This document shows, in pieces, positions 10,117 to 35,240 of a DNA stretch of 64,000 bases. This DNA is from a virus (taxonomy: Duplodnaviria; Caudoviricetes), in the IMG/VR virus record IMGVR_UViG_3300037455_001397, positions 34,542 to 98,541 of that record. One strand, 5' to 3'. Within the stretch, counting starts at the first letter, position 1. The number at the start of each line of letters is the position of its first letter. The notes under the pieces are model-generated. The model was not told the origin of the DNA. It did no database searches and saw only the letters and a list, made by a program, of their open reading frames with translations. A program made the translations under genes and the position numbers.

Positions 10117-10524
10117 ATGAAGCTTTACACCATCGACGGGCAGACCTTCAAAAGTCTGCCCGATCCGTATCAGAACATGAGCCCCATGACGGACGAACTG
10201 TTCGAGCAGCTTGGCGGCACCATCACGGATGACGGCACTCCGACTCCAGAAGAGGAGTTTGAGGCGGCCTGCGCTCAATTCCGAACCATCTGCACCGCCA
10301 TCGGGCAATTCATCGGAGCAGACAACTTCCACGGCGGCTTCGGGGAGATGGCGTCCTTCGCCAGCTCCGAAGCGTACCAGGCAAATCCGGTCATGGGGAA
10401 CAGCCTCGCCATCCAGTGGTCGGCCGCCAACGAGCAAGGCAAATACTTCGGTTCCAAAATCGGGTACGGTCAGCCTCAGTGGTGGTACCGATGCTGGCAG
10501 CTGGCCGGAATTGAAATCGACTGA
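10117..10524 (+). CDS. Hypothetical phage protein (possible fibre assembly factor)
   Basis: SD GAGGAG, 135 aa, follows the fibre genes. Confidence 0.6.
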   Translation: MKLYTIDGQTFKSLPDPYQNMSPMTDELFEQLGGTITDDGTPTPEEEFEAACAQFRTICTAIGQFIGADNFHGGFGEMASFASSEAYQANPVMGNSLAIQWSAANEQGKYFGSKIGYGQPQWWYRCWQLAGIEID

Positions 10525-12097: not shown

Positions 12098-12302
12098 GCC
12101 TTTGCGCTGGAAGACACAGCGGCTTTCGTGGCGATCTTTCGGCTATGTTTCGCGCAACGCATAAGGCCTTGGTTCAGGGGCATCCTGCCAAGGGGGCAAG
12201 ATCGCACAAATCGGCCTTTCTGGGCGTTTATTGGCATAAATCATAATGGACCTGCGCGAGCAAACGCCTCAAAACTTTCTGCGAAGAATTATAGAAAAAC
12301 CG

Positions 12303-12513
12303 CTTGACTTTTCTGTAAAAGCATAATCGGAGAATCTTCGATTTTTCTTTCGTTTTCGACTTGCTTTTTGGAAAAAGGGATAGTCGAAGAAAAACTGGTC
12401 TTTCTTCGGAAACCGACTTGATATTGAGGCAAACAATGCTCAAGAAGAAAGTTCAATTAAAAACGCTTATTTCTCTGTAAAAGACTGGCTATTAACGAAT
12501 AGTACGCTAAATT
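12303..12513 (+). promoter_or_regulatory. Promoter-unit array A ending in promoter CTGGCT-17-TAAATT
   Basis: CTTG/CTGG boxes at 12303, 12360, 12417 and 12485. Confidence 0.75.
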
Positions 12514-12566
12514 AACAACAGAACGGGAAGCATAGGGCGACCCACACGACAACAAGGAGATGCAAC

Positions 12567-12827: not shown

Positions 12828-12879
12828 ACCGCAACACTCGAACACCCCGCTGCCCTGAGCGACGGGGCTCTCTTTTCGA

Positions 12880-13032
12880 CAATCCTTTTGAAAAAAAGAT
12901 TATCGAAGAAAGATCGGTTTTTCTTCGGAAACCGACTTGATATTGAGGCGAATCATGCTCACGAAGAAAGTTCTATTAAAAACGCTTATTTCTCTATAAA
13001 AGACTGGCTATTAACGAATAACGCGCTAAATT
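12880..13032 (+). promoter_or_regulatory. Promoter-unit array B (near-copy of 12360-12513)
   Basis: Boxes at 12880 (degenerate), 12936 and 13004; TAAATT at 13027-13032. Confidence 0.75.
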
Positions 13033-13102
13033 GTTAATGTCGAGCGGGCGAATGGAACACCTGCGAAAGAAACAAAAAACTGCCAACAGACGGAGGCACA
13101 AG

Positions 13103-13414
13103 ATGGACGAAGAAAAAATCCTCAGAGACACCGAAACCGGCGAAGAATTCACCTATGAGGAAATCGAAGCCGAGTACGAACGACTCAAACGCGATGGGGA
13201 AACCGAAGCGGAAACAATCGGGGACTACATCGAAAACATCACGGCCCCAAACGGAACATGCGAGTGGATCGACGAAACCTGGCACAAATGCGAATGGTGC
13301 GGTGAAATCTACCCCGAAAGCGACCTGAGAGAGGAGAAGGACCTCGGCTACCTCTGCGAACACTGCATCCTTGCCATCTCGAGCCGCGGCGAAGACCTCT
13401 ACCTGAAATACTGA
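13103..13414 (+). CDS. Acidic protein with a C-terminal CxxC..CxxC zinc ribbon
   Basis: SD GGAGG; CEWC...CEHC; Glu-rich. Confidence 0.7.
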   Translation: MDEEKILRDTETGEEFTYEEIEAEYERLKRDGETEAETIGDYIENITAPNGTCEWIDETWHKCEWCGEIYPESDLREEKDLGYLCEHCILAISSRGEDLYLKY

Positions 13415-14123: not shown

Positions 14124-14387
14124 CTTGACTTTTCCGAAAAAGCATAATCGGAGAATCTTCGATATTTCTTCCGAAAAAGACTTGACTTTATCAAAAAGGG
14201 ATTATCGAAAGAATGTTCGATATTTCTTTCGTTTATGGCTGGACTTTTGTTTTATCCATGCTCCGGCGTTCTTCGCGTCTTGATAGACATTCTAAAACGA
14301 CCCCGTTCCGAGCTCGGAATAAAAGTCGAATAAAAGTCCTTATTTCTTCGATTAACGACTGGCTATTAACGAATTATGCGCTTAATT
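14124..14387 (+). promoter_or_regulatory. Promoter-unit array C
   Basis: Boxes at 14124, 14181, 14239 and 14359; TTAATT at 14382-14387. Confidence 0.75.
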
Positions 14388-14459
14388 AATTGATGTCGAG
14401 CGGGCGGCACGGGCCGCCTGCGAACCAAACGAAAAATGCCAACCCTGATGGAGGCAAAC

Positions 14460-14711
14460 ATGAGCAAGACGAACATCAAGCTCAACCTGGAAGGAGTGGA
14501 CGGGAATGCGTTCTGCATCCTGGGCCACGCGATGCGCGCACTGAGACAGAACCACAAGATGGAACTCTGGGACGAGTTCCACGCCGAAGCCACCTCCGGC
14601 GACTACAACAAACTCCTCTGCACGGTCTCCGACTGGTTCGACGTCTGCTTCGGCGACGAAGACGAAGATGAAGACGAGTACGACTTCGACTGCGAAGGCG
14701 ACGAAGACTGA
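14460..14711 (+). CDS. Small phage protein (DGNAF...SGDY family) with a very acidic tail
   Basis: SD GGAGG; LEGVDGNAFCILG...ATSGDYNKLL; tail DEDEDEDEYDFDCEGDED. Confidence 0.75.
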   Translation: MSKTNIKLNLEGVDGNAFCILGHAMRALRQNHKMELWDEFHAEATSGDYNKLLCTVSDWFDVCFGDEDEDEDEYDFDCEGDED

Positions 14712-14998: not shown

Positions 14999-15060
14999 AC
15001 ATCGAACACGCCCGGCCGGATGCCGGGCAACTCTTTTTTCGCTTTTTCTTCGCATTTCGA

Positions 15061-15214
15061 CTTGCTATTCAGAAATACCATGCTCCGAAAGAATCTTCGT
15101 TATTTCTTCGCTTTCACACTTGACATTCCGATAAGCTCGTTATGAGCAGAATAAAAAGAAAGATTCGTATTTCTTCGATAAAAGACTGGATTAAGTTTCT
15201 TTAAGCGCTTAATT
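15061..15214 (+). promoter_or_regulatory. Promoter-unit array D
   Basis: Boxes at 15061, 15119 and 15186; TTAATT at 15209-15214. Confidence 0.7.
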
Positions 15215-15282
15215 AATAGCAGAGCGAGGCTGAACGAGGTCGCGCGAACCAAACGAAAAACTCCAAACTGACGGAGGAAACG

Positions 15283-15549
15283 ATGATCGAAATCATCAAG
15301 CATGACGGAGCCTGGACAGTGGCCAAGGCAGTGTTCGAAGGCAAAAACTATCACATCGAAACCAAGCACTTCGAGCTGCCGAGCGAATTCGGAATCAACA
15401 ACGGGCGCATCAGCAAGCTGTTCATCAGCGAGGGGACGAGCTGGAACCCTGACAAATGCCGGTGCGCCTACGACCGCGGCTGGGATCGCAGACCGAGAAC
15501 GAAGGCGGCCAAGGCCATCTACAATGAAATCCTCGCGATGTACAACTGA
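15283..15549 (+). CDS. Conserved phage protein (PSEFGINNGRISKL...YDRGWD family)
   Basis: Motif recognised from small proteins that accompany phage amidoligase clusters. Confidence 0.75.
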   Translation: MIEIIKHDGAWTVAKAVFEGKNYHIETKHFELPSEFGINNGRISKLFISEGTSWNPDKCRCAYDRGWDRRPRTKAAKAIYNEILAMYN

Positions 15550-15561
15550 GGAGGAGCGACC

Positions 15562-16026
15562 ATGGCAAACAACTGCTTCATCGAAATCTCGCTCGAAACC
15601 GAAACCTCCGAACAGGCCAAGGGGCTCCGCAAGGAGCTCCGGGCCGCCTTCCGGCAGGCTGCTCGCGAAAACGTCGGAGCCTACTTCGGGAGCGACCGTT
15701 ACTTCTTCGACGGCAAAGTCGAACAGGACGGAACGGAGGTGTTCATCGGCGGCTGGGTCAAGTGGGGATACAGCGACGGCGAGTTCATCGACATGTTCAG
15801 CTGGCTCCGCCGCAAGACCGCAATCAAGAAGTTCCACATGCACTACGAGGAGCTCATGACCGACCAGTACGGCGAATACGAACTTCACGCGGACGGCACG
15901 GTCTGGAACAACTTCCTGCTCGAAAAAGATTTCCCGACCGAGACCGACGACTACGAAGCCTACTGCGAAAAGGTCGAGGAAGCCTTCCGCACAAAACCCG
16001 CCACAAGATTCATCGAGGTCGGCTGA
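15562..16026 (+). CDS. Hypothetical protein (MANNC N-terminus, acidic)
   Basis: SD GAGGAGG, 154 aa. Confidence 0.7.
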   Translation: MANNCFIEISLETETSEQAKGLRKELRAAFRQAARENVGAYFGSDRYFFDGKVEQDGTEVFIGGWVKWGYSDGEFIDMFSWLRRKTAIKKFHMHYEELMTDQYGEYELHADGTVWNNFLLEKDFPTETDDYEAYCEKVEEAFRTKPATRFIEVG

Positions 16027-16099
16027 ACAGAAACCACCAACGGTCCCGCCACCCTGGCGGGGCCGAAATATCCACACCCCAACATAAGGAACACTCACA

Positions 16100-16285
16100 A
16101 TGGAAACCAAAACCGTCGAACAGTCCATGAAGGAACTCGAAAACCGTGTGCATCTTCTGATGGAAGAACTCTCGGCCGCCGGGCAGGAAAACCTCGCCAA
16201 TCGCATCCAGGACATCTGGGATGAGACCAACTTCCTCCGCGACGAACACCCGGACTTCAATTTCGGGAAGTGGCGCGAAGCGTAA
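16100..16285 (+). CDS. Small acidic hypothetical protein
   Basis: SD AAGGA, 61 aa. Confidence 0.6.
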   Translation: METKTVEQSMKELENRVHLLMEELSAAGQENLANRIQDIWDETNFLRDEHPDFNFGKWREA

Positions 16286-16352
16286 CCGCCAGTATTCGGC
16301 AATAATGGCTTTCCCGTAAAGTCAAGCTCAAAATCGAAGAAAACCGAATCTT

Positions 16353-16414
16353 TCCGCAGATTCGTCGGACGACCTCTTCGCCTCCGTCAGGGCTTTCGTT
16401 CGCGAATCTGCGGA
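16353..16414 (+). ncRNA. Candidate structured RNA element, copy 1 (anti-RBS loop hairpin)
   Basis: Stem TCCGCAGATTCG/CGAATCTGCGGA; loop contains TCGCCTCCGTCAGGGCT. Confidence 0.55.
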
Positions 16415-16653
16415 TTTCTATGCACGGGTATCGCAATTATGCGAAACGTCGCTCGCTTATGCCGGAACGTGCGATCATGCGCCTGGGGTCGCATGTTTCA
16501 AATCGAACGCCGGGGATACGTCGGCCAAATACCGGCCTTTCTGGCGGGCGTTTGGCGTTTTGAATAGAGATCAGACGCGCAAAGCGGCCCGAAACCGGGC
16601 ATCGGATGTTGTCGGTACCGAAAATCTTTTTTCGATATTTCTTCGATCTTCGG

Positions 16654-16750
16654 CTGGATTTATCAACTTTCCATGCTCCCGAATAAAGTCCGAATTAAGT
16701 TCGAATAACCTCGGTTTCCGACTGGCTATTCACGAATAGAACGCTAAATT
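16654..16750 (+). promoter_or_regulatory. Promoter-unit array E
   Basis: Boxes at 16654 and 16722; TAAATT at 16745-16750. Confidence 0.7.
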
Positions 16751-16817
16751 TACAAACGAGCGCGGGAGATACGGAAAACCCGCGGAAACCGAAACCCAAA
16801 CGAAGGAGAACAGAAAA

Positions 16818-17051
16818 ATGCCAGACAGATTTCTGACGGCAACGAAATGTGCAAGATGCGGCGGGTCGCTTGATGGCGGCAGGATAATGAGCCGGTTCAA
16901 TGAGGATGTCCTCTGCCTCGACTGCGAACGCGAAGAGCGCCAGCATCCGGACTACCAGAAGGCTGCCGATGCGGAACTCGCCGCTGTTCGTCGTGGCGAC
17001 ATGAACTTCCCCGGCATCGGCTGGCCGGGAAAGAACGGTCGCGTGAAGTGA
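16818..17051 (+). CDS. Small zinc-finger phage protein (CxRCG...RIMSRFN...CxxC...NFPGIG)
   Basis: Four Cys; family recognised from amidoligase/GGCT neighbourhoods. Confidence 0.75.
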   Translation: MPDRFLTATKCARCGGSLDGGRIMSRFNEDVLCLDCEREERQHPDYQKAADAELAAVRRGDMNFPGIGWPGKNGRVK

Positions 17052-17122
17052 AACAAGAACAACAGGCCGTCGCCAGAAGGTGGCGGCCAGTAAATCTTTC
17101 TTCGATATTTCTTGATATTTCG

Positions 17123-17480
17123 CTTGCTTTTCCGAAAAGAGCATAATCAAAGAATCTTCGATATTTCTTCCGAAAAAGACTGGATTATATTGAAACCGCG
17201 TTACGGAAAGAAAGTTCGATAATTCTTCGCTTTTCCGCTTGACTTCCCCTTTTTCCATGCTCGAAAGAATAATCGATATTTCTTTCGTTTTCCACTTGCT
17301 ATTCTGCTTTTCCATGCTAGAAAAGAATAATAGATATTTCTTCGCTTTCTGACTTGATATTTCTCTTTTACCTCATTTCGAGCAGAAAGACGGCTTTATT
17401 AAAATAATCGGAAGAAAGTTCGATAAAAAGCGTTATTTCTTCGATAAACGACTGGCTATTAACGCTTTCCATGCTTAATT
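17123..17480 (+). promoter_or_regulatory. Promoter-unit array F (longest, 6 boxes)
   Basis: Boxes at 17123, 17180, 17238, 17295, 17353 and 17452; TTAATT at 17475-17480. Confidence 0.8.
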
Positions 17481-17551
17481 AACTAATGTCGAGCGGGATG
17501 CACGGGCAACCCGCGAACCAAACAAGAATGCCAACCAAGACGGAGGCAAAC

Positions 17552-18445
17552 ATGAGCGAGAACAACATCCTCGACACCGCGAAAACCCTGGGCTTCGGAA
17601 CGGAGCTCGAATACACTCACATCAGCCGCGAAGGAGCCGCGAGAGCAATCCAGAGCGTGGTCGGCGGCAACATCAGCCACACCGGCGGGAGCTACGACGC
17701 CTGGACGGTCACCGCCCCTGACGGACGGAAATGGAAGGCGGTCAGCGATGGCAGCCTCAGCGGAACCTCGGCAGAGGTGGTCACGCCCATCCTGCACTGG
17801 GAAGACTTCGATACCCTGCAGAAGGTGGTGCGCGCCCTGCGCCACGCCGGAGCCAAGACCCCGGCCTGCACGAGCCAGCACGTCCACGTCGGAGTCGAAG
17901 ACTTCACGGCGGCGCAAATCGCGAACTTCGCGAGAATCTGGTACAAGCAGGAAAAGCTCATCCTCAAGGCGGTCGGAACCCTGCCGAGCCGCCTCGCACA
18001 CTACACGAAGCCGACCGACCGCGAGTTCATCGACCGCCTCGAAAAGATGAAACCGCAGACCCGCCAACAGCTGAACATCGCCTGGTACGGGTACGCGAAC
18101 CCGCGTCCTGCCCACTACGACAGCACCCGCTACCGCGCCATCAACCTCAACAACGTGTGGACCACGGGGACGGTCGAGCTGAGGTGCTTCAATGGCTGTA
18201 ATCATGCGGGCAAGGTCAAAACAGCCGCGATTCTTGCCCTGATGATCGCCGCCAAGGCCAAGACCGCGAAGTGCGCGAGCACGAAGAAGCCGCGCGAGTA
18301 CAGCGAGGAGAGCGCCGCCTACGATATGCGGGTGTTCCTCCTCCACCTCAAGGCAATCGGGCCGGAGTTCAAAAACTTCCGCAAGCACCTCCTCGACAAC
18401 CTGCCGGGGAACAAGGCGTGGAAGCACGGCAGGCCGAACGCCTGA
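17552..18445 (+). CDS. Amidoligase (COOH-NH2 ligase, Amidoligase_2 family)
   Basis: FGTELE, DGSL, EVVTPIL, HVHV, RYRAIN and TVELR motifs. Confidence 0.9.
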   Translation: MSENNILDTAKTLGFGTELEYTHISREGAARAIQSVVGGNISHTGGSYDAWTVTAPDGRKWKAVSDGSLSGTSAEVVTPILHWEDFDTLQKVVRALRHAGAKTPACTSQHVHVGVEDFTAAQIANFARIWYKQEKLILKAVGTLPSRLAHYTKPTDREFIDRLEKMKPQTRQQLNIAWYGYANPRPAHYDSTRYRAINLNNVWTTGTVELRCFNGCNHAGKVKTAAILALMIAAKAKTAKCASTKKPREYSEESAAYDMRVFLLHLKAIGPEFKNFRKHLLDNLPGNKAWKHGRPNA

Positions 18446-18487
18446 CCGACCAGCCGGAGGGGGCCGGACAACCGGCCTCCTCACCTC

Positions 18488-18655
18488 AGCATGGCTTGCC
18501 GAAAAAGCAAGCGGTTCTTTGAAATAAAACGAAAGAAATTCGGATAATCCGGTTTTCGGAATAGCAAGTCCAAACCGAAAGAAAAACGCGACTTTCTGCC
18601 GATTATGCCTTTCCCGAAAAGTCAACCGGAAATCCGAAGAAAAACGAATCTTTTC
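18488..18655 (-). repeat. Inverted array of three promoter-like units (a single inverted unit lies at about 16300-16355)
   Basis: Minus-strand boxes at 18626, 18568 and 18511 (spacing 58, 57). The reverse complement of 18599-18625, TTGACTTTTCGGGAAAGGCATAATCGG, matches 14125-14151 with 3 mismatches. Confidence 0.7.
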
Positions 18656-18715
18656 CGCAGTTTTGCCGGGGACCTCACTCGCCTCCGTCAGGGCTGTTTC
18701 CGGCGAAACTGCGGA
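18654..18715 (+). ncRNA. Candidate structured RNA element, copy 2 (anti-RBS loop hairpin)
   Basis: 20-bp stem with 3 G-U pairs and a different inner stem sequence from copy 1; identical 17-nt loop segment. Confidence 0.55.
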
Positions 18716-18896
18716 TTTTAATTCGAGCATTCTAAATCGCTTCCCCTATGCCGATTATGCCAAACGTCGCTCGCTTTGGGCTCAACGTGCGATTCGGCAG
18801 CCGGGGAAGCACCCCCCAAATCCAACCGCATAAATCAACCCCCACAAACGGCCCCGGAACGGCCACAAAACCCGTAAAGAATAGGAGGTCAGACCT

Positions 18897-19175
18897 ATGA
18901 AAATCAGAATTCACGAAATGGACATCGACGGTACCCCTGTCGCCTATACCGGCGAATACTATGTTGGCGCGAACGCCACCGAGATTGTCGAAGCCATGAA
19001 AAAGAACCCGTTCCAAATCGACCTCACGGTCGAAGAATACATGCGGAAGATTCTCGATAAAATCGGCAAGGCGGACTATGTCCTCACCGAGGACGATGCC
19101 CCGCTGGAGTTCCTGAATCTGCTCGCCAAACTCAATTATGCTTCCTTCGAGGAGCAGGAGGTCAAGGTAAAATGA
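18897..19175 (+). CDS. Hypothetical protein
   Basis: SD AGGAGG, 92 aa. Confidence 0.7.
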   Translation: MKIRIHEMDIDGTPVAYTGEYYVGANATEIVEAMKKNPFQIDLTVEEYMRKILDKIGKADYVLTEDDAPLEFLNLLAKLNYASFEEQEVKVK

Positions 19176-19516
19176 ACGCTATCTTCATCGATGCCCAAAA
19201 CAAGACTGTCAGCCTGATCGAGATTGAAAACGATCTCCAGGCCATGTACGACAAAATCGGATGCCTGCTCGTGCAGACCGTTCCCTTTGCCGGGGAAAAC
19301 ATCGTCTGCGATGAGGAAGGACGCCTCAAGCGGTGGACTTCCGGATTCGAGCTCGGCGACTGGCGCATCGTCGGCAACGCCCTGATCGTCGGCGACACCG
19401 AGGACGGGGACTTCGCGGACACGAAACTGTTAGCAGAAGAGATCGCAAAGCAAATCCGGTTCTTCGGCGAAGACGAACCGCTGCCACCTCCGGAATTCCA
19501 TGTCATCGGGCTGTGA
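19172..19516 (+). CDS. DUF3846-like protein
   Basis: NDLQAMYDKIG...IVCDEEGRL...IVGNALIVG...GDF pattern. Confidence 0.7.
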   Translation: MNAIFIDAQNKTVSLIEIENDLQAMYDKIGCLLVQTVPFAGENIVCDEEGRLKRWTSGFELGDWRIVGNALIVGDTEDGDFADTKLLAEEIAKQIRFFGEDEPLPPPEFHVIGL

Positions 19517-19620
19517 AAACTTTATCGAAGAAACTTCATCTTATTCTCCGAAAGGCACTTGCGTTAATCAAAAGTCATGCTTTAAGTAATAACAGCCACA
19601 ACCATAAGGAGAAAGAATCC

Positions 19621-20082
19621 ATGAACACCCCGATCCTCTACTTCGCCTACGGGTCGAACCTCAACCCGAAACGCATCCACCACAGATGTCCGACAGCCGC
19701 TTCATTCAGAGCAGCCCAGCTCAAGAACTATCGTCTCGTCGAACGCCTTTACGCCGACATCGACTATGAAGAAGGCGCTGTGGTCCATGGCGTCCTCTAC
19801 TGCATCAGCGAACGAGAACTGAGCATCCTCGACACCTACGAGGGATGCCCGCACATCTACCGCAGAATCTGGATCGAGGCCGACTGCAACGGCGAGACCT
19901 TCGTGGCCGCGACCTACGAGATGACGCCCGAAACGAAAGTCCTTCGCGAAGGTCAGCCGTTCCCCGAAGATTACAGAAAGATCTGCTCTGTGGGTGCGGC
20001 CTTCCACCGCATCCCAAATGCATTCCGCAACAACAAAAACTTCTTCCATCAACTCAACCTCAAAAGGAGCACAAAAAAATGA
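19621..20082 (+). CDS. Gamma-glutamylcyclotransferase-like protein
   Basis: YFAYGSNL, VHGVLY and LDTYEG motifs; a single promoter-like unit at about 19525-19590. Confidence 0.85.
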   Translation: MNTPILYFAYGSNLNPKRIHHRCPTAASFRAAQLKNYRLVERLYADIDYEEGAVVHGVLYCISERELSILDTYEGCPHIYRRIWIEADCNGETFVAATYEMTPETKVLREGQPFPEDYRKICSVGAAFHRIPNAFRNNKNFFHQLNLKRSTKK

Positions 20083-20453
20083 AAACTGTCAAACTTGTCG
20101 TCTACGGAACACTCATGACCGGAGAGGGCAACCACCGCCTCTGCGCAAATGCCGTGAAAATCACGCCCTGCACAATCGTGGGGACGCTCTACGACACAGG
20201 CTGGGGCTTCCCCGCCTTCGAACAGACCGGAGACACGGTCGTCCATGCCAAACTCATCGAAATCCCGTTCGAGGACTGGCCGAACGTTGACAGGCTGGAA
20301 GGCTACCCCAGGCTCTACGACCGCAAGCTCATTCAGGCAACGCTCGCAGATGGAAGCACGGACACCGGCTGGGTGTACATCATGAACAGCCTTCCGGCCA
20401 CTGCCAAGGTCATCCAGTCCGGCGACTGGAAGAAGCGGAAGGAGGCCGAATGA
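20079..20453 (+). CDS. GGACT/AIG2-like gamma-glutamylcyclotransferase
   Basis: VYGTLMTGEGNH, GFPA, DRLEGYPRLYDR and SGDW motifs. Confidence 0.85.
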   Translation: MKTVKLVVYGTLMTGEGNHRLCANAVKITPCTIVGTLYDTGWGFPAFEQTGDTVVHAKLIEIPFEDWPNVDRLEGYPRLYDRKLIQATLADGSTDTGWVYIMNSLPATAKVIQSGDWKKRKEAE

Positions 20454-33486: not shown

Positions 33487-35240
33487 CCATGAGATTTGAC
33501 AACAATAAACTTGGAGAACTTCGACCCAATCAAATCATTACGACTTTTGGCCCTGGTTCGATTGTGGATGCCGTGAAGGATTCTGTAACTGTCTTGGACA
33601 CCACATACTGGAAGGATAAAGGGACAAGGATCATTGACGGCAGACTCGCATCTTATCTTGGTGTAGACTGCTTTTATATGCCCAGAACATCCTCTGTTGG
33701 GGATATCCCGGTTGTTTCATTTCCTTATGTCCACGTGTGCTCCAAATGTGGTAGATTATTTGACGTTAGAGACAACTTTGACCTGGATCTTTATCTTCAG
33801 AAAGGTGTTAATTGTCCCGAATGTGGTTGGCAAGCATATCCTTCGCGTTTTATCACGGTTTGCGAAGACGGCCACATGGATGATTTTCCTTGGAGGTGGT
33901 GGGTACACAAGGGCAACACGAGTTGCAAAGGTCATATAAAAACATATTCCATTGGCAACACTTCCACGCTTGCAGATATGTGGGTGGAATGCACTTGCGG
34001 CGCCAAACGCAGCCTGAGCGGGGCAATGCAGAAAGAGAATCTTGAAGGTTGTGGCTGCACAGGCCGACACCCGTTCCGTCCACAGACGAAAAAGACCAAA
34101 TGCAACAAGCCTGTTATTCCTTCGCAGAGAGGCGCTTCCAATGTCTATTTCTCTGTGAGCCGAAGTGCAATTTCAATTCCGCCTTGGATTAATCCTTTGT
34201 ATAACCTTCTTGATGAACATCTTCGGCAGATTATTGATTACAAGGAAGATTGGGGCGAAGAAGGCGTCGCAAAGGTTTACAATAAATATTTCGCAGATAG
34301 ATATTCCAGGGCGGAGTTTGATGCTGCTTTGGAAAAGCGGTTAAGTAACATAAAAGAGTTCACAGAGATCAAACAGATGGAATATGATGCCATCACGCAC
34401 CATGCTGATCCAGCATATCAGTCAAACAAAAAACATTTTAAGGCCGAGGAAGATCCATTGCCAGCTCCACTTCAAAAGTATTTCAAGCGTGTTGTTAGAG
34501 TAACACGCTTGCGTGAAGTCAAGGTTCTGATTGGTTTTACCAGAGTGGATGCCTCTGATCCTGATGCCGACGCAGATAATCAGCCTAATATTGTTGCTAT
34601 TAGCAAAGGCAGGGAAGAAAAATGGCTTCCTGCTGCCGAGGTAAATGGAGAAGGTGTTTTTATTGAATTCAACAAAGACACGCTTAAGCAATGGTTGCAG
34701 ACCAAAGGCGTTAAGGAAATCTCTAAGTTATATGAAAATAGCTACAAAGAATTCTGCAAACAGAAAAATTGGACCGTTACCTTTTTGAGAAATGCTGTTT
34801 ATACCATGATGCATACTTTCTCGCATTTGCTGATAAAGCAAATGGCTATGTCCTCAGGATATTCCTCGGCCGCTATTCGTGAACGAATCTATTTTAGTGA
34901 TACCATGTCTGGAATCCTGCTTTATACTGGAAGCGCAGATAAAGAAGGATCTCTCGGCGGTCTTGTGGAGCTTGGAAACATTGACAAACTGGAGTGGCTA
35001 ATGAGGGACGCGTTCCAGGAAGCGTTGCTTTGTACAAATGATCCGGAATGCATGAATAGCCTTCCTGCAGGCGATAATTCAAATGGTGCGGCGTGTCATT
35101 CGTGCTGTATGATTTCAGAAACTGCTTGTGAAAACGGAAACCGTATGCTTGACCGTGGACTGGTAGTTCCTATTGCGGGTCGAGAAGATCAATCATACTT
35201 TAAGGACTTGGTGGCTGATTTATGTCTACTGGAAATCTGA
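33483..35240 (+). CDS. drmB: DISARM DrmB (DUF1998)
   Basis: QIITTFGPGS, GHMDDFPW, HTFSHLL, EGSLGGL, C-NDPEC...ACHSC...SETACE...LDR. Confidence 0.9.
   Translation: MTMRFDNNKLGELRPNQIITTFGPGSIVDAVKDSVTVLDTTYWKDKGTRIIDGRLASYLGVDCFYMPRTSSVGDIPVVSFPYVHVCSKCGRLFDVRDNFDLDLYLQKGVNCPECGWQAYPSRFITVCEDGHMDDFPWRWWVHKGNTSCKGHIKTYSIGNTSTLADMWVECTCGAKRSLSGAMQKENLEGCGCTGRHPFRPQTKKTKCNKPVIPSQRGASNVYFSVSRSAISIPPWINPLYNLLDEHLRQIIDYKEDWGEEGVAKVYNKYFADRYSRAEFDAALEKRLSNIKEFTEIKQMEYDAITHHADPAYQSNKKHFKAEEDPLPAPLQKYFKRVVRVTRLREVKVLIGFTRVDASDPDADADNQPNIVAISKGREEKWLPAAEVNGEGVFIEFNKDTLKQWLQTKGVKEISKLYENSYKEFCKQKNWTVTFLRNAVYTMMHTFSHLLIKQMAMSSGYSSAAIRERIYFSDTMSGILLYTGSADKEGSLGGLVELGNIDKLEWLMRDAFQEALLCTNDPECMNSLPAGDNSNGAACHSCCMISETACENGNRMLDRGLVVPIAGREDQSYFKDLVADLCLLEI

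Follow-up and report, generated by a model that had tools for sequence, protein, structure and literature searches.

Functional pairing between the two UTRs of a single bacterial mRNA rests on very few studied cases, among them icaR of Staphylococcus aureus and hbs of Bacillus subtilis. In the icaR mRNA, an anti-SD motif in the 3'UTR pairs with the SD region of the same mRNA, and both inhibition of ribosome loading and RNase III-dependent decay have been reported, with cis versus trans action left open (PMC3868564). In the hbs mRNA, a long-range pairing between the two UTRs affects the fate of the transcript through ribonuclease access and stability, and SD occlusion by a terminator loop is not described in the abstract of that study (PMC5737220). 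A similar logic is found in the hok mRNA of plasmid R1 (PMC9841398), in which the 3' end of the full-length mRNA (fbi) pairs with its 5' region (tac) and keeps the completed transcript translationally inert. Terminator-containing 3'UTR-derived small RNAs such as CpxQ and DapZ, and C-rich anti-SD hairpin loops such as RNAIII hairpins 13 and 14, are established classes in which a terminator-proximal hairpin RNA with an accessible C-rich seed binds SD regions. We know of no 5'-3' UTR pairing of this kind in a phage, and of none in which the anti-SD lies in the terminator loop.

Here we investigated two long terminator-like hairpins in the early region of a 98-kb phage (IMG/VR record IMGVR_UViG_3300037455_001397; host probably Lentisphaerota), using a stretch of 64,000 nucleotides of that record (positions 34,542 to 98,541), hereafter the window. 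The initial annotation had proposed that the two hairpins share a 17-mer loop that is antisense to the ribosome-binding sites (RBSs) of four lead genes, that they follow operons lacking a U-tailed terminator, and that they act as a 3'UTR sRNA or a fold-back inhibitor, comparable to the hok fbi element, that shuts off translation of toxic early proteins as a pulse timer. We confirmed the observation itself. The interpretation is supported only in part: comparative data favor the pairing of loop and RBS, whereas translational shut-off, a pulse timer, and toxic products are not supported by our data.

Like the icaR motif, the anti-SD sequence lies in the 3'UTR of the same transcription unit as its target, covers the SD, and is maintained in evolution. 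It differs in that it sits in the apical or internal loop of the terminator-like hairpin itself rather than 260 nt downstream of the stop codon, in that the complementarity extends 4-5 nt beyond the SD and so gives gene-specific "addresses" that co-evolve, and in that it concerns a phage early gene in a probable PVC-group host and rests on comparative evidence only. The hok comparison is only an analogy. The fbi element pairs with the 5'-terminal tac element rather than the SD, and activation of hok needs 3' trimming, whereas the target here is the SD region, 50-60 nt inside the 5'UTR. The one named product is an amidoligase and the others are DUFs or unknown, and we found no hok-like ORF, no mok reading frame, and no Sok antisense RNA. 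A search against Rfam 15 returned a single chance-level hit in 11-22 kb (IS128, 22 bits against a gathering score of 80, E 0.48), which lies elsewhere. With respect to 3'UTR-derived small RNAs, there is no evidence here for a released, stable species or a chaperone, and in several relatives the target is just the gene immediately upstream.

Two terminator-like hairpins with an identical loop sequence

To determine whether the two hairpins are genuine RNA structures, we folded both strands of each. As + strand RNA, they fold at -35.0 and -42.7 kcal/mol (z -4.8 and -6.6, 0 of 200 shuffles as good), whereas the - strand folds worse, at -31.4 and -35.2. The inner stems differ, and both pair. Across eight copies in close relatives, five stem pairs show changes on both sides, four pairs use G-U (which would be A-C on the other strand), and the 16-nt loop core never varies. 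The features of the locus are as follows, all on the + strand.

16353-16414: hairpin 1, 12 bp, a 1-nt bulge, then 7 bp, with a 23-nt apical loop; likely terminator of the operon 15283-16285
16380-16389: anti-RBS core of loop 1 (10 nt), inside the invariant 16-mer 16378-16393
16415-16422: short U-rich tail after hairpin 1
18654-18715: hairpin 2, a 20-bp stem including G-U pairs and a 22-nt loop; likely terminator of the monocistronic amidoligase unit
18681-18690: anti-RBS core of loop 2, aligning column for column with the unpaired heptamer region of the hairpins in distant relatives
18716-18723: U-rich tail after hairpin 2
17539-17547: SD region of the amidoligase gene (start codon 17552), 9 nt Watson-Crick complementary to the loop; inferred cognate target of hairpin 2
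15268-15277: SD region of the DUF7678 gene (start codon 15283), lead gene of the operon that ends at hairpin 1, 10 nt complementary
14443-14455: SD region of the lead gene 14460-14711, 13 nt complementary including one G-U; its own operon ends in a plain terminator, so it could only be a target in trans
13089-13097: SD region of the lead gene 13103-13414, 9 nt complementary; possible target in trans
17552-18445: amidoligase gene (PF12224, E 4e-49), the gene that the hairpin accompanies in the phage family
15283-16285: three-gene operon (DUF7678 and two unknowns) upstream of hairpin 1
16284-16508: duplicated module, copy 1, comprising a reversed promoter-like repeat, the hairpin, and a conserved downstream block
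18584-18826: duplicated module, copy 2

The 17-mer is exact at 16378-16394 and 18679-18695, both on the + strand. The only other matches in the window at up to three mismatches are the RBS region at 14441-14457 (- strand) and one more site, against 0.12 expected by chance. The four RBS matches are present as claimed, although the coordinates given for them in the initial annotation are those of the start codons. The evidence from the window alone is nevertheless weak. The two hairpins are paralogous parts of the duplicated ~225-bp module, whose copies are 71-83% identical, and by our own rough estimate, an identical 17-nt run between just these two copies has a chance of about 0.4. The four lead-gene 5'UTRs are also paralogues and do not represent four independent matches. 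With G-U allowed, runs of 9 nt or more complementary to the 17-mer number 98 in the genome against about 66 in shuffles, so that within this genome, the complementarity is not significant.

Because the hairpins were said to follow operons without a U-tailed terminator, we examined how the neighboring operons end. The other operons in 12-17 kb end in ordinary GC hairpin plus U-run terminators at 12852, 13918, 15010, and 17065, and the long hairpins occupy that slot. They carry short U tails (TTTCTATG and TTTTAATT) of 3-4 U, compared with 4-7 U in relatives, and are themselves the likely terminators, so the claim is only half right. A stable stem directly followed by a U-rich tract just downstream of the last gene is what is expected of an intrinsic terminator, though the tails in the window are weak. 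The stems of 19-20 bp and the loops, which are 22-23 nt here and 47-52 nt with internal structure in relatives, depart from the usual short loop, and a generic terminator scan allowing loops of 3-8 nt did not report them. The hairpins lie 68 nt and 209 nt after the stop codon of the last gene, with no intervening terminator for the first operon and only a weak terminator-like site at 18494-18512 for the second.

These observations leave room for a simpler view, in which the hairpins are ordinary, unusually long intrinsic terminators or 3' stabilizers, and the complementarity is a functionless by-product of CCUCC content and shared ancestry. The terminator position, the U tail, the fact that any loop containing CCUCC fits any SD, the lack of a significant within-genome excess, and the unsurprising identity between two paralogues all fit this view, but we regard it as unlikely in light of the data from relatives described below. 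We also considered and rejected other readings of the loop. A small ORF on the - strand using the SD-like loop complement lacks a start codon at usable spacing in copy 1, and the short frame seen in some relatives is not conserved. For a mimic of the 16S rRNA 3' end, similarity is limited to CCUCC, and the covarying positions lie outside it. Pairing of the loop with the RBS of the downstream gene, or with the GC hairpin right after the amidoligase stop, shows no complementarity beyond GGAGG and no covariation.

Covariation between the loop and the RBS in related phages

To understand whether the complementarity is maintained in evolution, a point that the initial annotation had set as a test, we searched for relatives. 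A homologous terminator-like hairpin follows the amidoligase gene in about 20 related phages and prophages, and its unpaired apical stretch is complementary to that phage's own amidoligase RBS, with the exceptions noted below. A search of phage GenBank with 12.1-20 kb found only a 55-nt chance-like hit in Erwinia jumbo phages. An exact 17-mer scan of IMG/VR gave one true relative and three chance hits in coding DNA, and the 16-mer of the downstream block gave the same relative plus chance hits. A metagenome scan with a loop-blind pattern gave seven true and seven chance loci, an apical-motif scan of IMG/VR added nothing new, and inspection of two last contigs added only a known version and a hairpin-less lineage. 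Numbers beginning with L below denote individual relatives.

MAFFT aligned the loop core of the window column for column with the unpaired stretch of the hairpins in distant relatives. In their consensus fold, which is supported by eight compensatory pairs in 15 distant copies, that stretch is a 7-nt single-stranded internal loop. The four bases 5' of the GG of the SD occur in four versions, and the loop matches each one. In an alignment of 18 sequences, 10 RBS-loop pairs form a standard pair in 88.3% of cells, against 26-57% when the partners are slid. Three of the four pairs 5' of the GG have changes on both sides (CG13/UA2, GC12/AU5, and UA11/CG7; 14 cells), and 0 of 500 shuffles reach the observed values. 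On the amidoligase tree, the four flank versions need at least four double changes. Cognate RBS-loop pairs have 3.9 of 4 Watson-Crick flank pairs against 2.5 for non-cognate pairs (permutation p = 3e-4). The sequences are related, however, and the shuffle control ignores phylogeny; there are only four flank versions, and L098 and L099 may share the change seen in L036. In addition, with wobble pairs allowed, some non-cognate combinations would also pair.

The predicted duplex varies in length and continuity. In L025 and L041, close relatives, the complementarity is 11-12 nt. In the commonest version, the A of GGAGG faces a G or an A, so the duplex is 6 + 3 bp rather than continuous, and in the window and L018, the outermost flank pair is A-A. 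L043 and L044 keep the hairpin although the amidoligase 5'UTR has been replaced by one that does not match, which fits the view of a functionless loop. Many relatives with the same amidoligase have no such hairpin (L015, L038, L039, L046-L051, and L178), so it is dispensable for the gene. What a functionless loop does not explain is why the non-SD flank positions of RBS and loop, 1.1 kb apart, changed in a complementary way at least four times.

We next asked whether the match is specific to the gene upstream. In L035, L040, and L045, the other lead genes carry one flank while the amidoligase carries another, and its hairpin follows the amidoligase. In L035, a search with a model of the hairpin found a diverged second hairpin (10286-10375, E 2e-4) after a monocistronic gene, and its unpaired stretch matches the RBS flank of that gene and not that of the amidoligase. 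Two different hairpins in one genome thus each match the site of their own upstream gene, which a by-product of shared CCUCC content also does not explain.

The same alignment bears on whether the shared 10-bp motif acts as DNA, with a phage or host DNA-binding protein recognizing the same site in opposite orientation in the 5'UTR and in the terminator. An inverted repeat of a short motif at both ends of a gene is what a looping regulator would use, and promoter-like repeats also occur in reversed orientation next to the hairpins. In most lineages, however, the two DNA copies are not identical and differ exactly where RNA would form G-U; pair 31-1238 of the alignment is GU in 11 sequences, GC in 4, and AU in 3, which is acceptable as + strand RNA but is not an identical DNA motif. 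Moreover, the covarying bases lie in the predicted single-stranded part of a covariation-supported RNA fold, and the protein would have to change specificity four times. We consider this reading very unlikely.

A putative anti-RBS loop in a probable intrinsic terminator

Together, these data lead us to suggest, as more likely than not, that each hairpin is the intrinsic terminator of an early + strand transcription unit and that its apical loop carries an anti-RBS sequence. In this view, once the 3' end of the mRNA has been made, the loop can pair with about 9-12 nt at the first cistron of the same transcript, namely the SD sequence plus the 4-5 bases 5' of it, in a loop-to-single-strand "kissing" contact between the 3' and 5' UTRs. 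Such a contact is pseudoknotted with respect to the hairpin stem and cannot be shown by nested folding. The most likely consequence would be occlusion of the SD, so that completed transcripts are translated less and perhaps decay faster, a negative, self-limiting control of the amidoligase and of the DUF7678 operon. The icaR mRNA provides a precedent, in that pairing of its 3'UTR anti-SD with its own SD blocks ribosome loading (PMC3868564). Our analysis establishes the structures, the strand, the terminator-like position, the complementarity, and its co-evolution, whereas termination at the hairpins, pairing in vivo, repression, its timing, the proposed toxicity of the early proteins, and the choice between cis and trans action are inferred from sequence alone.

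The data fit a fold-back pairing within one transcript at least as well as a free sRNA. The hairpins might instead work mainly in trans, with the stable terminator hairpin persisting as a 3'-derived small RNA after decay of the mRNA body and its loop binding the SD regions of a regulon of paralogous lead genes (13103, 14460, 15283, and 17552), collectively shutting down early translation. Consistent with this possibility, four lead genes in the window share the complementary RBS flank, two of them (13103 and 14460) have no hairpin of their own, the two identical loops each fit all four, and in L035, the unpaired stretch of the second hairpin fits eight lead-gene RBSs that share one flank. However, in L035, L040, and L045, the amidoligase hairpin matches only the amidoligase RBS, a one-gene "regulon" that is most simply explained in cis. 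The shared flank can be explained by duplication of the 5'UTR cassettes, and there is no evidence that a stable fragment accumulates. Although we consider a mainly trans-acting role unlikely, released hairpin RNA could also act in trans on the four lead genes under the cis model.

The long stems might alternatively be processing or decay sites of the RNase III type, as between T7 early genes or at lambda sib, with RBS pairing serving to build a double-stranded substrate for decay rather than to block ribosomes. Hairpin 2 has 20 contiguous pairs, about two helical turns, whereas hairpin 1 has 12 + 7 bp and relatives have basal stems of only 12-17 bp plus upper stems. In icaR, the same pairing also creates an RNase III substrate (PMC3868564). 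This reading, which we regard as improbable as the main role, is compatible with SD occlusion rather than exclusive of it.

A broader possibility, which we put forward tentatively and rate as slightly less likely than not, is that this phage family uses a modular "addressed terminator" logic. Each early transcription unit would end in a terminator whose loop carries a short address complementary to the SD plus flank of that unit's first gene, so that every completed mRNA closes on itself and limits its own translation. Duplicating the terminator, or unifying the RBS flanks, would turn private feedback loops into a shared early-gene shut-off, a protein-free, co-evolving 5'-3' mRNA circuit in a virus.

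Natural variation here supplies what amounts to a compensatory-mutation series, with four RBS flank versions, each matched by its loop, plus two differently addressed hairpins in one genome, which makes the idea directly testable with simple reporters. If confirmed, it would add a compact regulatory part, a terminator that also sets the translation of its own gene, as well as a mechanism for self-limiting early gene expression without a repressor protein. It would also provide a first look at gene regulation in phages of Lentisphaerota, a host group that is hardly studied.

Genomic context and structure of the two hairpins

To place the hairpins in context, we first examined gene content and repeats across the window. 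The 98,541-bp IMG/VR virus record, of which these are positions 34542-98541, is rated complete. Genes upstream of 11 kb look like tail and fibre genes, and from 12 to 21 kb there is a run of short + strand operons, followed by methylases and helicases. A block at 22000-52000 has a much lower G+C content (36-45% against 50-60% elsewhere) and holds N6/N4 and C5 DNA methylases, SNF2/ResIII helicases and large proteins of unknown function; it looks like a mosaic or acquired region. The gene preceding the second hairpin is an amidoligase (PF12224, E 4e-49), with DUF3846 and two GGACT (gamma-glutamyl cyclotransferase-like) genes downstream. A conserved cassette of amidoligase, small ORF or DUF3846, and two GGACT genes (17552-20453) appears in many phages and prophages of Lentisphaerota, including the relatives L015-L017 and L034-L040, and may be a peptide-ligation or tag-removal system of unknown target. 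Named homologues of the amidoligase come mostly from Lentisphaerota (Victivallaceae, Oligosphaera ethanolica and Lentisphaeria MAGs), several of them on contigs of about 100 kb, and we therefore infer that the host is probably a member of that phylum.

Each early operon is preceded by a paralogous 5'UTR and an array of 2-7 tandem promoter-like direct repeats of 48-57 nt (12300-12525, 12886-13044, 14124-14400, 15038-15210, 16631-16762 and 17101-17492). Each repeat has an AT-rich block, then a TTGACT-like hexamer and, only about 12 nt later, a CATAAT- or CATGCT-like hexamer. This spacing is too short for a standard sigma-70 promoter, and the generic scan does not call the repeats; the last repeat of each array (family D5) has a different geometry of 16-17 nt. 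Most of the operons end in an ordinary GC hairpin plus U run, at 12852, 13918, 15010 and 17065. Two very long open frames of 400 and 415 aa, at 15100-16302 (-) and 17483-18730 (-), run antisense to the DUF7678 operon and to the amidoligase gene, one of them starting beyond hairpin 2; these are probably shadow frames.

The initial annotation had placed two hairpins sharing an identical loop 17-mer at 16353-16414 (hairpin 1) and 18654-18715 (hairpin 2), and this observation is confirmed. Both fold far better than shuffled sequence on the + strand and less well on the - strand, and the 17-mer is exact in both. They belong to a duplicated module of about 225 bp with 71-83% identity between copies, and the features in and around the modules are as follows.

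16284-16508: duplicated module, copy 1, containing hairpin 1
18584-18826: duplicated module, copy 2, containing hairpin 2
16294-16327, 18543-18586 and 18599-18629: copies of the promoter-like repeat in reversed orientation just upstream of both hairpins, pointing back into the 3' ends of the + strand genes; possible antisense promoters
18455-18486: GC-rich hairpin with a GNRA-like loop and no U tail, directly after the amidoligase stop codon
18494-18512: second small hairpin, followed by a conserved GGTTCTTTGAAA

Each of the two long hairpins is followed by a U run, albeit a short one in this phage, and stands where the other operons have their terminators. The GC-rich hairpin after the amidoligase stop lies at the same position in the relatives L016, L018, L035-L037, L039 and L040, and is kept with compensatory changes even in relatives that lack the long hairpin.

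In an alignment of eight copies from close relatives (A4), the 16-nt loop core never varies, whereas five stem pairs change on both sides and four pairs use G-U, which would be A-C mismatches on the other strand. The + strand RNA is therefore the folding molecule, as the initial annotation had argued. Taken alone, the window does not prove more than this. The two copies are paralogues, as are the four matching 5'UTRs, and complementary runs of 9 nt or more, with G-U allowed, are only modestly more frequent than in shuffles (98 against about 66). A 10-nt Watson-Crick match to the loop also lies inside the amidoligase coding region at 17716-17725, at the Pro-Asp-Gly codons. It is present only in the window clade, which uses a different Pro codon from the other relatives, and may be chance.

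Homologous hairpins and complementarity to the ribosome-binding site in relatives

To determine whether the complementarity is maintained in evolution, we next collected related loci. IMG/VR holds one close relative, 86% identical over 17.1-20.4 kb, which has a single module, the orthologue of copy 2, with an identical loop and a compensated inner stem. A metagenome scan with a pattern that does not include the loop found more close copies, among them a contig with both hairpins (L025) and one copy 1 that lacks the reversed promoter-like repeat. This copy 1 is that of L025, so the reversed repeat is not an obligatory part of the hairpin module.

More distant relatives came from amidoligase homologues at 62-77% amino-acid identity. 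Many of these have a homologous hairpin 90-200 nt after the amidoligase stop, comprising a basal stem of 12-17 bp that differs by compensatory changes, upper stems, a small inner hairpin and 4-7 U directly after the stem. Many other amidoligase-bearing relatives lack the element altogether. At two chromosomal places in one Lentisphaeria genome (L116 and L117, CP091727.1), the amidoligase homologue stops matching at residue 213 and the typical lead RBS is still present, but there is no hairpin downstream; these may be interrupted prophage copies. RNAalifold on 15 of the distant hairpins keeps a 7-nt unpaired stretch between the inner hairpin and the upper stem and finds 8 pairs with compensatory changes. 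MAFFT aligns that stretch, without gaps, to the core of the window's loop. The window lineage has lost the inner hairpin, so its 22-nt loop is open. Rfam has no such family.

In every lineage that has the hairpin and a homologous 5'UTR, the unpaired stretch is complementary to that phage's own amidoligase SD region. The bases 5' of the GG of the SD come in four versions (written 5'-3'), (U/A)GAC in the window clade, CGAU, CAAC and CAAU, and the loops read GUCA, AUCG, GUUG and AUUG, respectively. There are only these four flank versions, among related sequences, and the commonest has an internal mismatch at the A of GGAGG. In addition, two relatives, L043 and L044, retain the hairpin after their 5'UTR was swapped for a non-matching one.

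To quantify the covariation, we counted pairs on an alignment of 18 sequences (A2) extending from 30 nt before the start codon to the hairpin end. The ten RBS-loop pairs are standard pairs in 88.3% of cells, against 26-57% when the 3' partners are slid by 1-3 columns, and three of the four flank pairs have changes on both sides (CG13/UA2, GC12/AU5 and UA11/CG7). None of 500 shuffles, which ignore relatedness, reaches the observed paired fraction, the number of doubly changed cells or the covariation score. On a tree of the coding region, the CGAU/AUCG version is widespread and the other three are derived, which needs at least four double changes. Over nine distinct RBS/loop combinations, cognate pairs have 3.9 of 4 Watson-Crick flank pairs against 2.5 for non-cognate pairs (permutation p = 3e-4). 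One SD position is G-U in 11 sequences, G-C in 4 and A-U in 3, which fits RNA pairing and does not fit a DNA motif repeated in inverse orientation.

Gene specificity and a proposed anti-RBS role

We also compared the flanks within single relatives. In the relatives L035, L040 and L045, the other lead genes share the CAAC flank, whereas the amidoligase has CGAU and its hairpin reads AUCG. Up to eight lead genes in one relative share nearly the same 5'UTR end with one common RBS flank (L035, 365-10562; also seen in L036, L040 and L045), suggesting either repeated duplication of a regulatory cassette or a common trans-acting partner. A covariance model built from the distant hairpins recovered all known copies and found one diverged paralogue in L035 at 10286-10375 (29.9 bits, E 2e-4). 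This paralogue follows a monocistronic gene with its own promoter-like element and a preceding canonical terminator, and its stretch reads GUUG and so matches that gene's CAAC flank. Two hairpins in one genome thus carry two different addresses, each fitting the gene immediately upstream. In the window, hairpin 1 follows the operon whose lead RBS gives a 10-nt match (15268-15277), and hairpin 2 follows the amidoligase, with a 9-nt match (17539-17547). In L025 and a further relative, L041, the matches are 11-12 nt.

The simplest reading of these data is an intrinsic terminator that doubles as an anti-RBS, such that when the 3' end is made, its loop can pair with the SD and flank of the first cistron. 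Because the loop lies inside the hairpin, the contact would be of a kissing or pseudoknot type, which nested folding cannot model; duplex energies for the isolated partners are predicted at -12 to -28 kcal/mol. In icaR, a UCCCCUG motif in the 3'UTR pairs with the SD, blocks ribosome loading and creates an RNase III substrate, and by analogy, we infer repression of completed transcripts. The pairing may act within one molecule, between molecules or through a stable released hairpin. The private address of the amidoligase favours cis action, whereas the four lead genes sharing one flank in this window leave trans action open.

Together, the interpretation offered in the initial annotation is borne out in part. 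Its central element, loop-RBS pairing of a 3' hairpin on the + strand, is supported by comparative evidence, whereas its suggestions of a pulse timer and of toxic early proteins have no support either way. The hairpins, their strand and their covariation with the RBS rest on the sequences themselves, and the functional outcome, including termination and repression in the infected cell, is inferred. The nearest known mechanism is the 5'-3' UTR anti-SD pairing of icaR, from which the element described here differs in its placement in the terminator loop, its co-evolving gene-specific flank and its phage setting.
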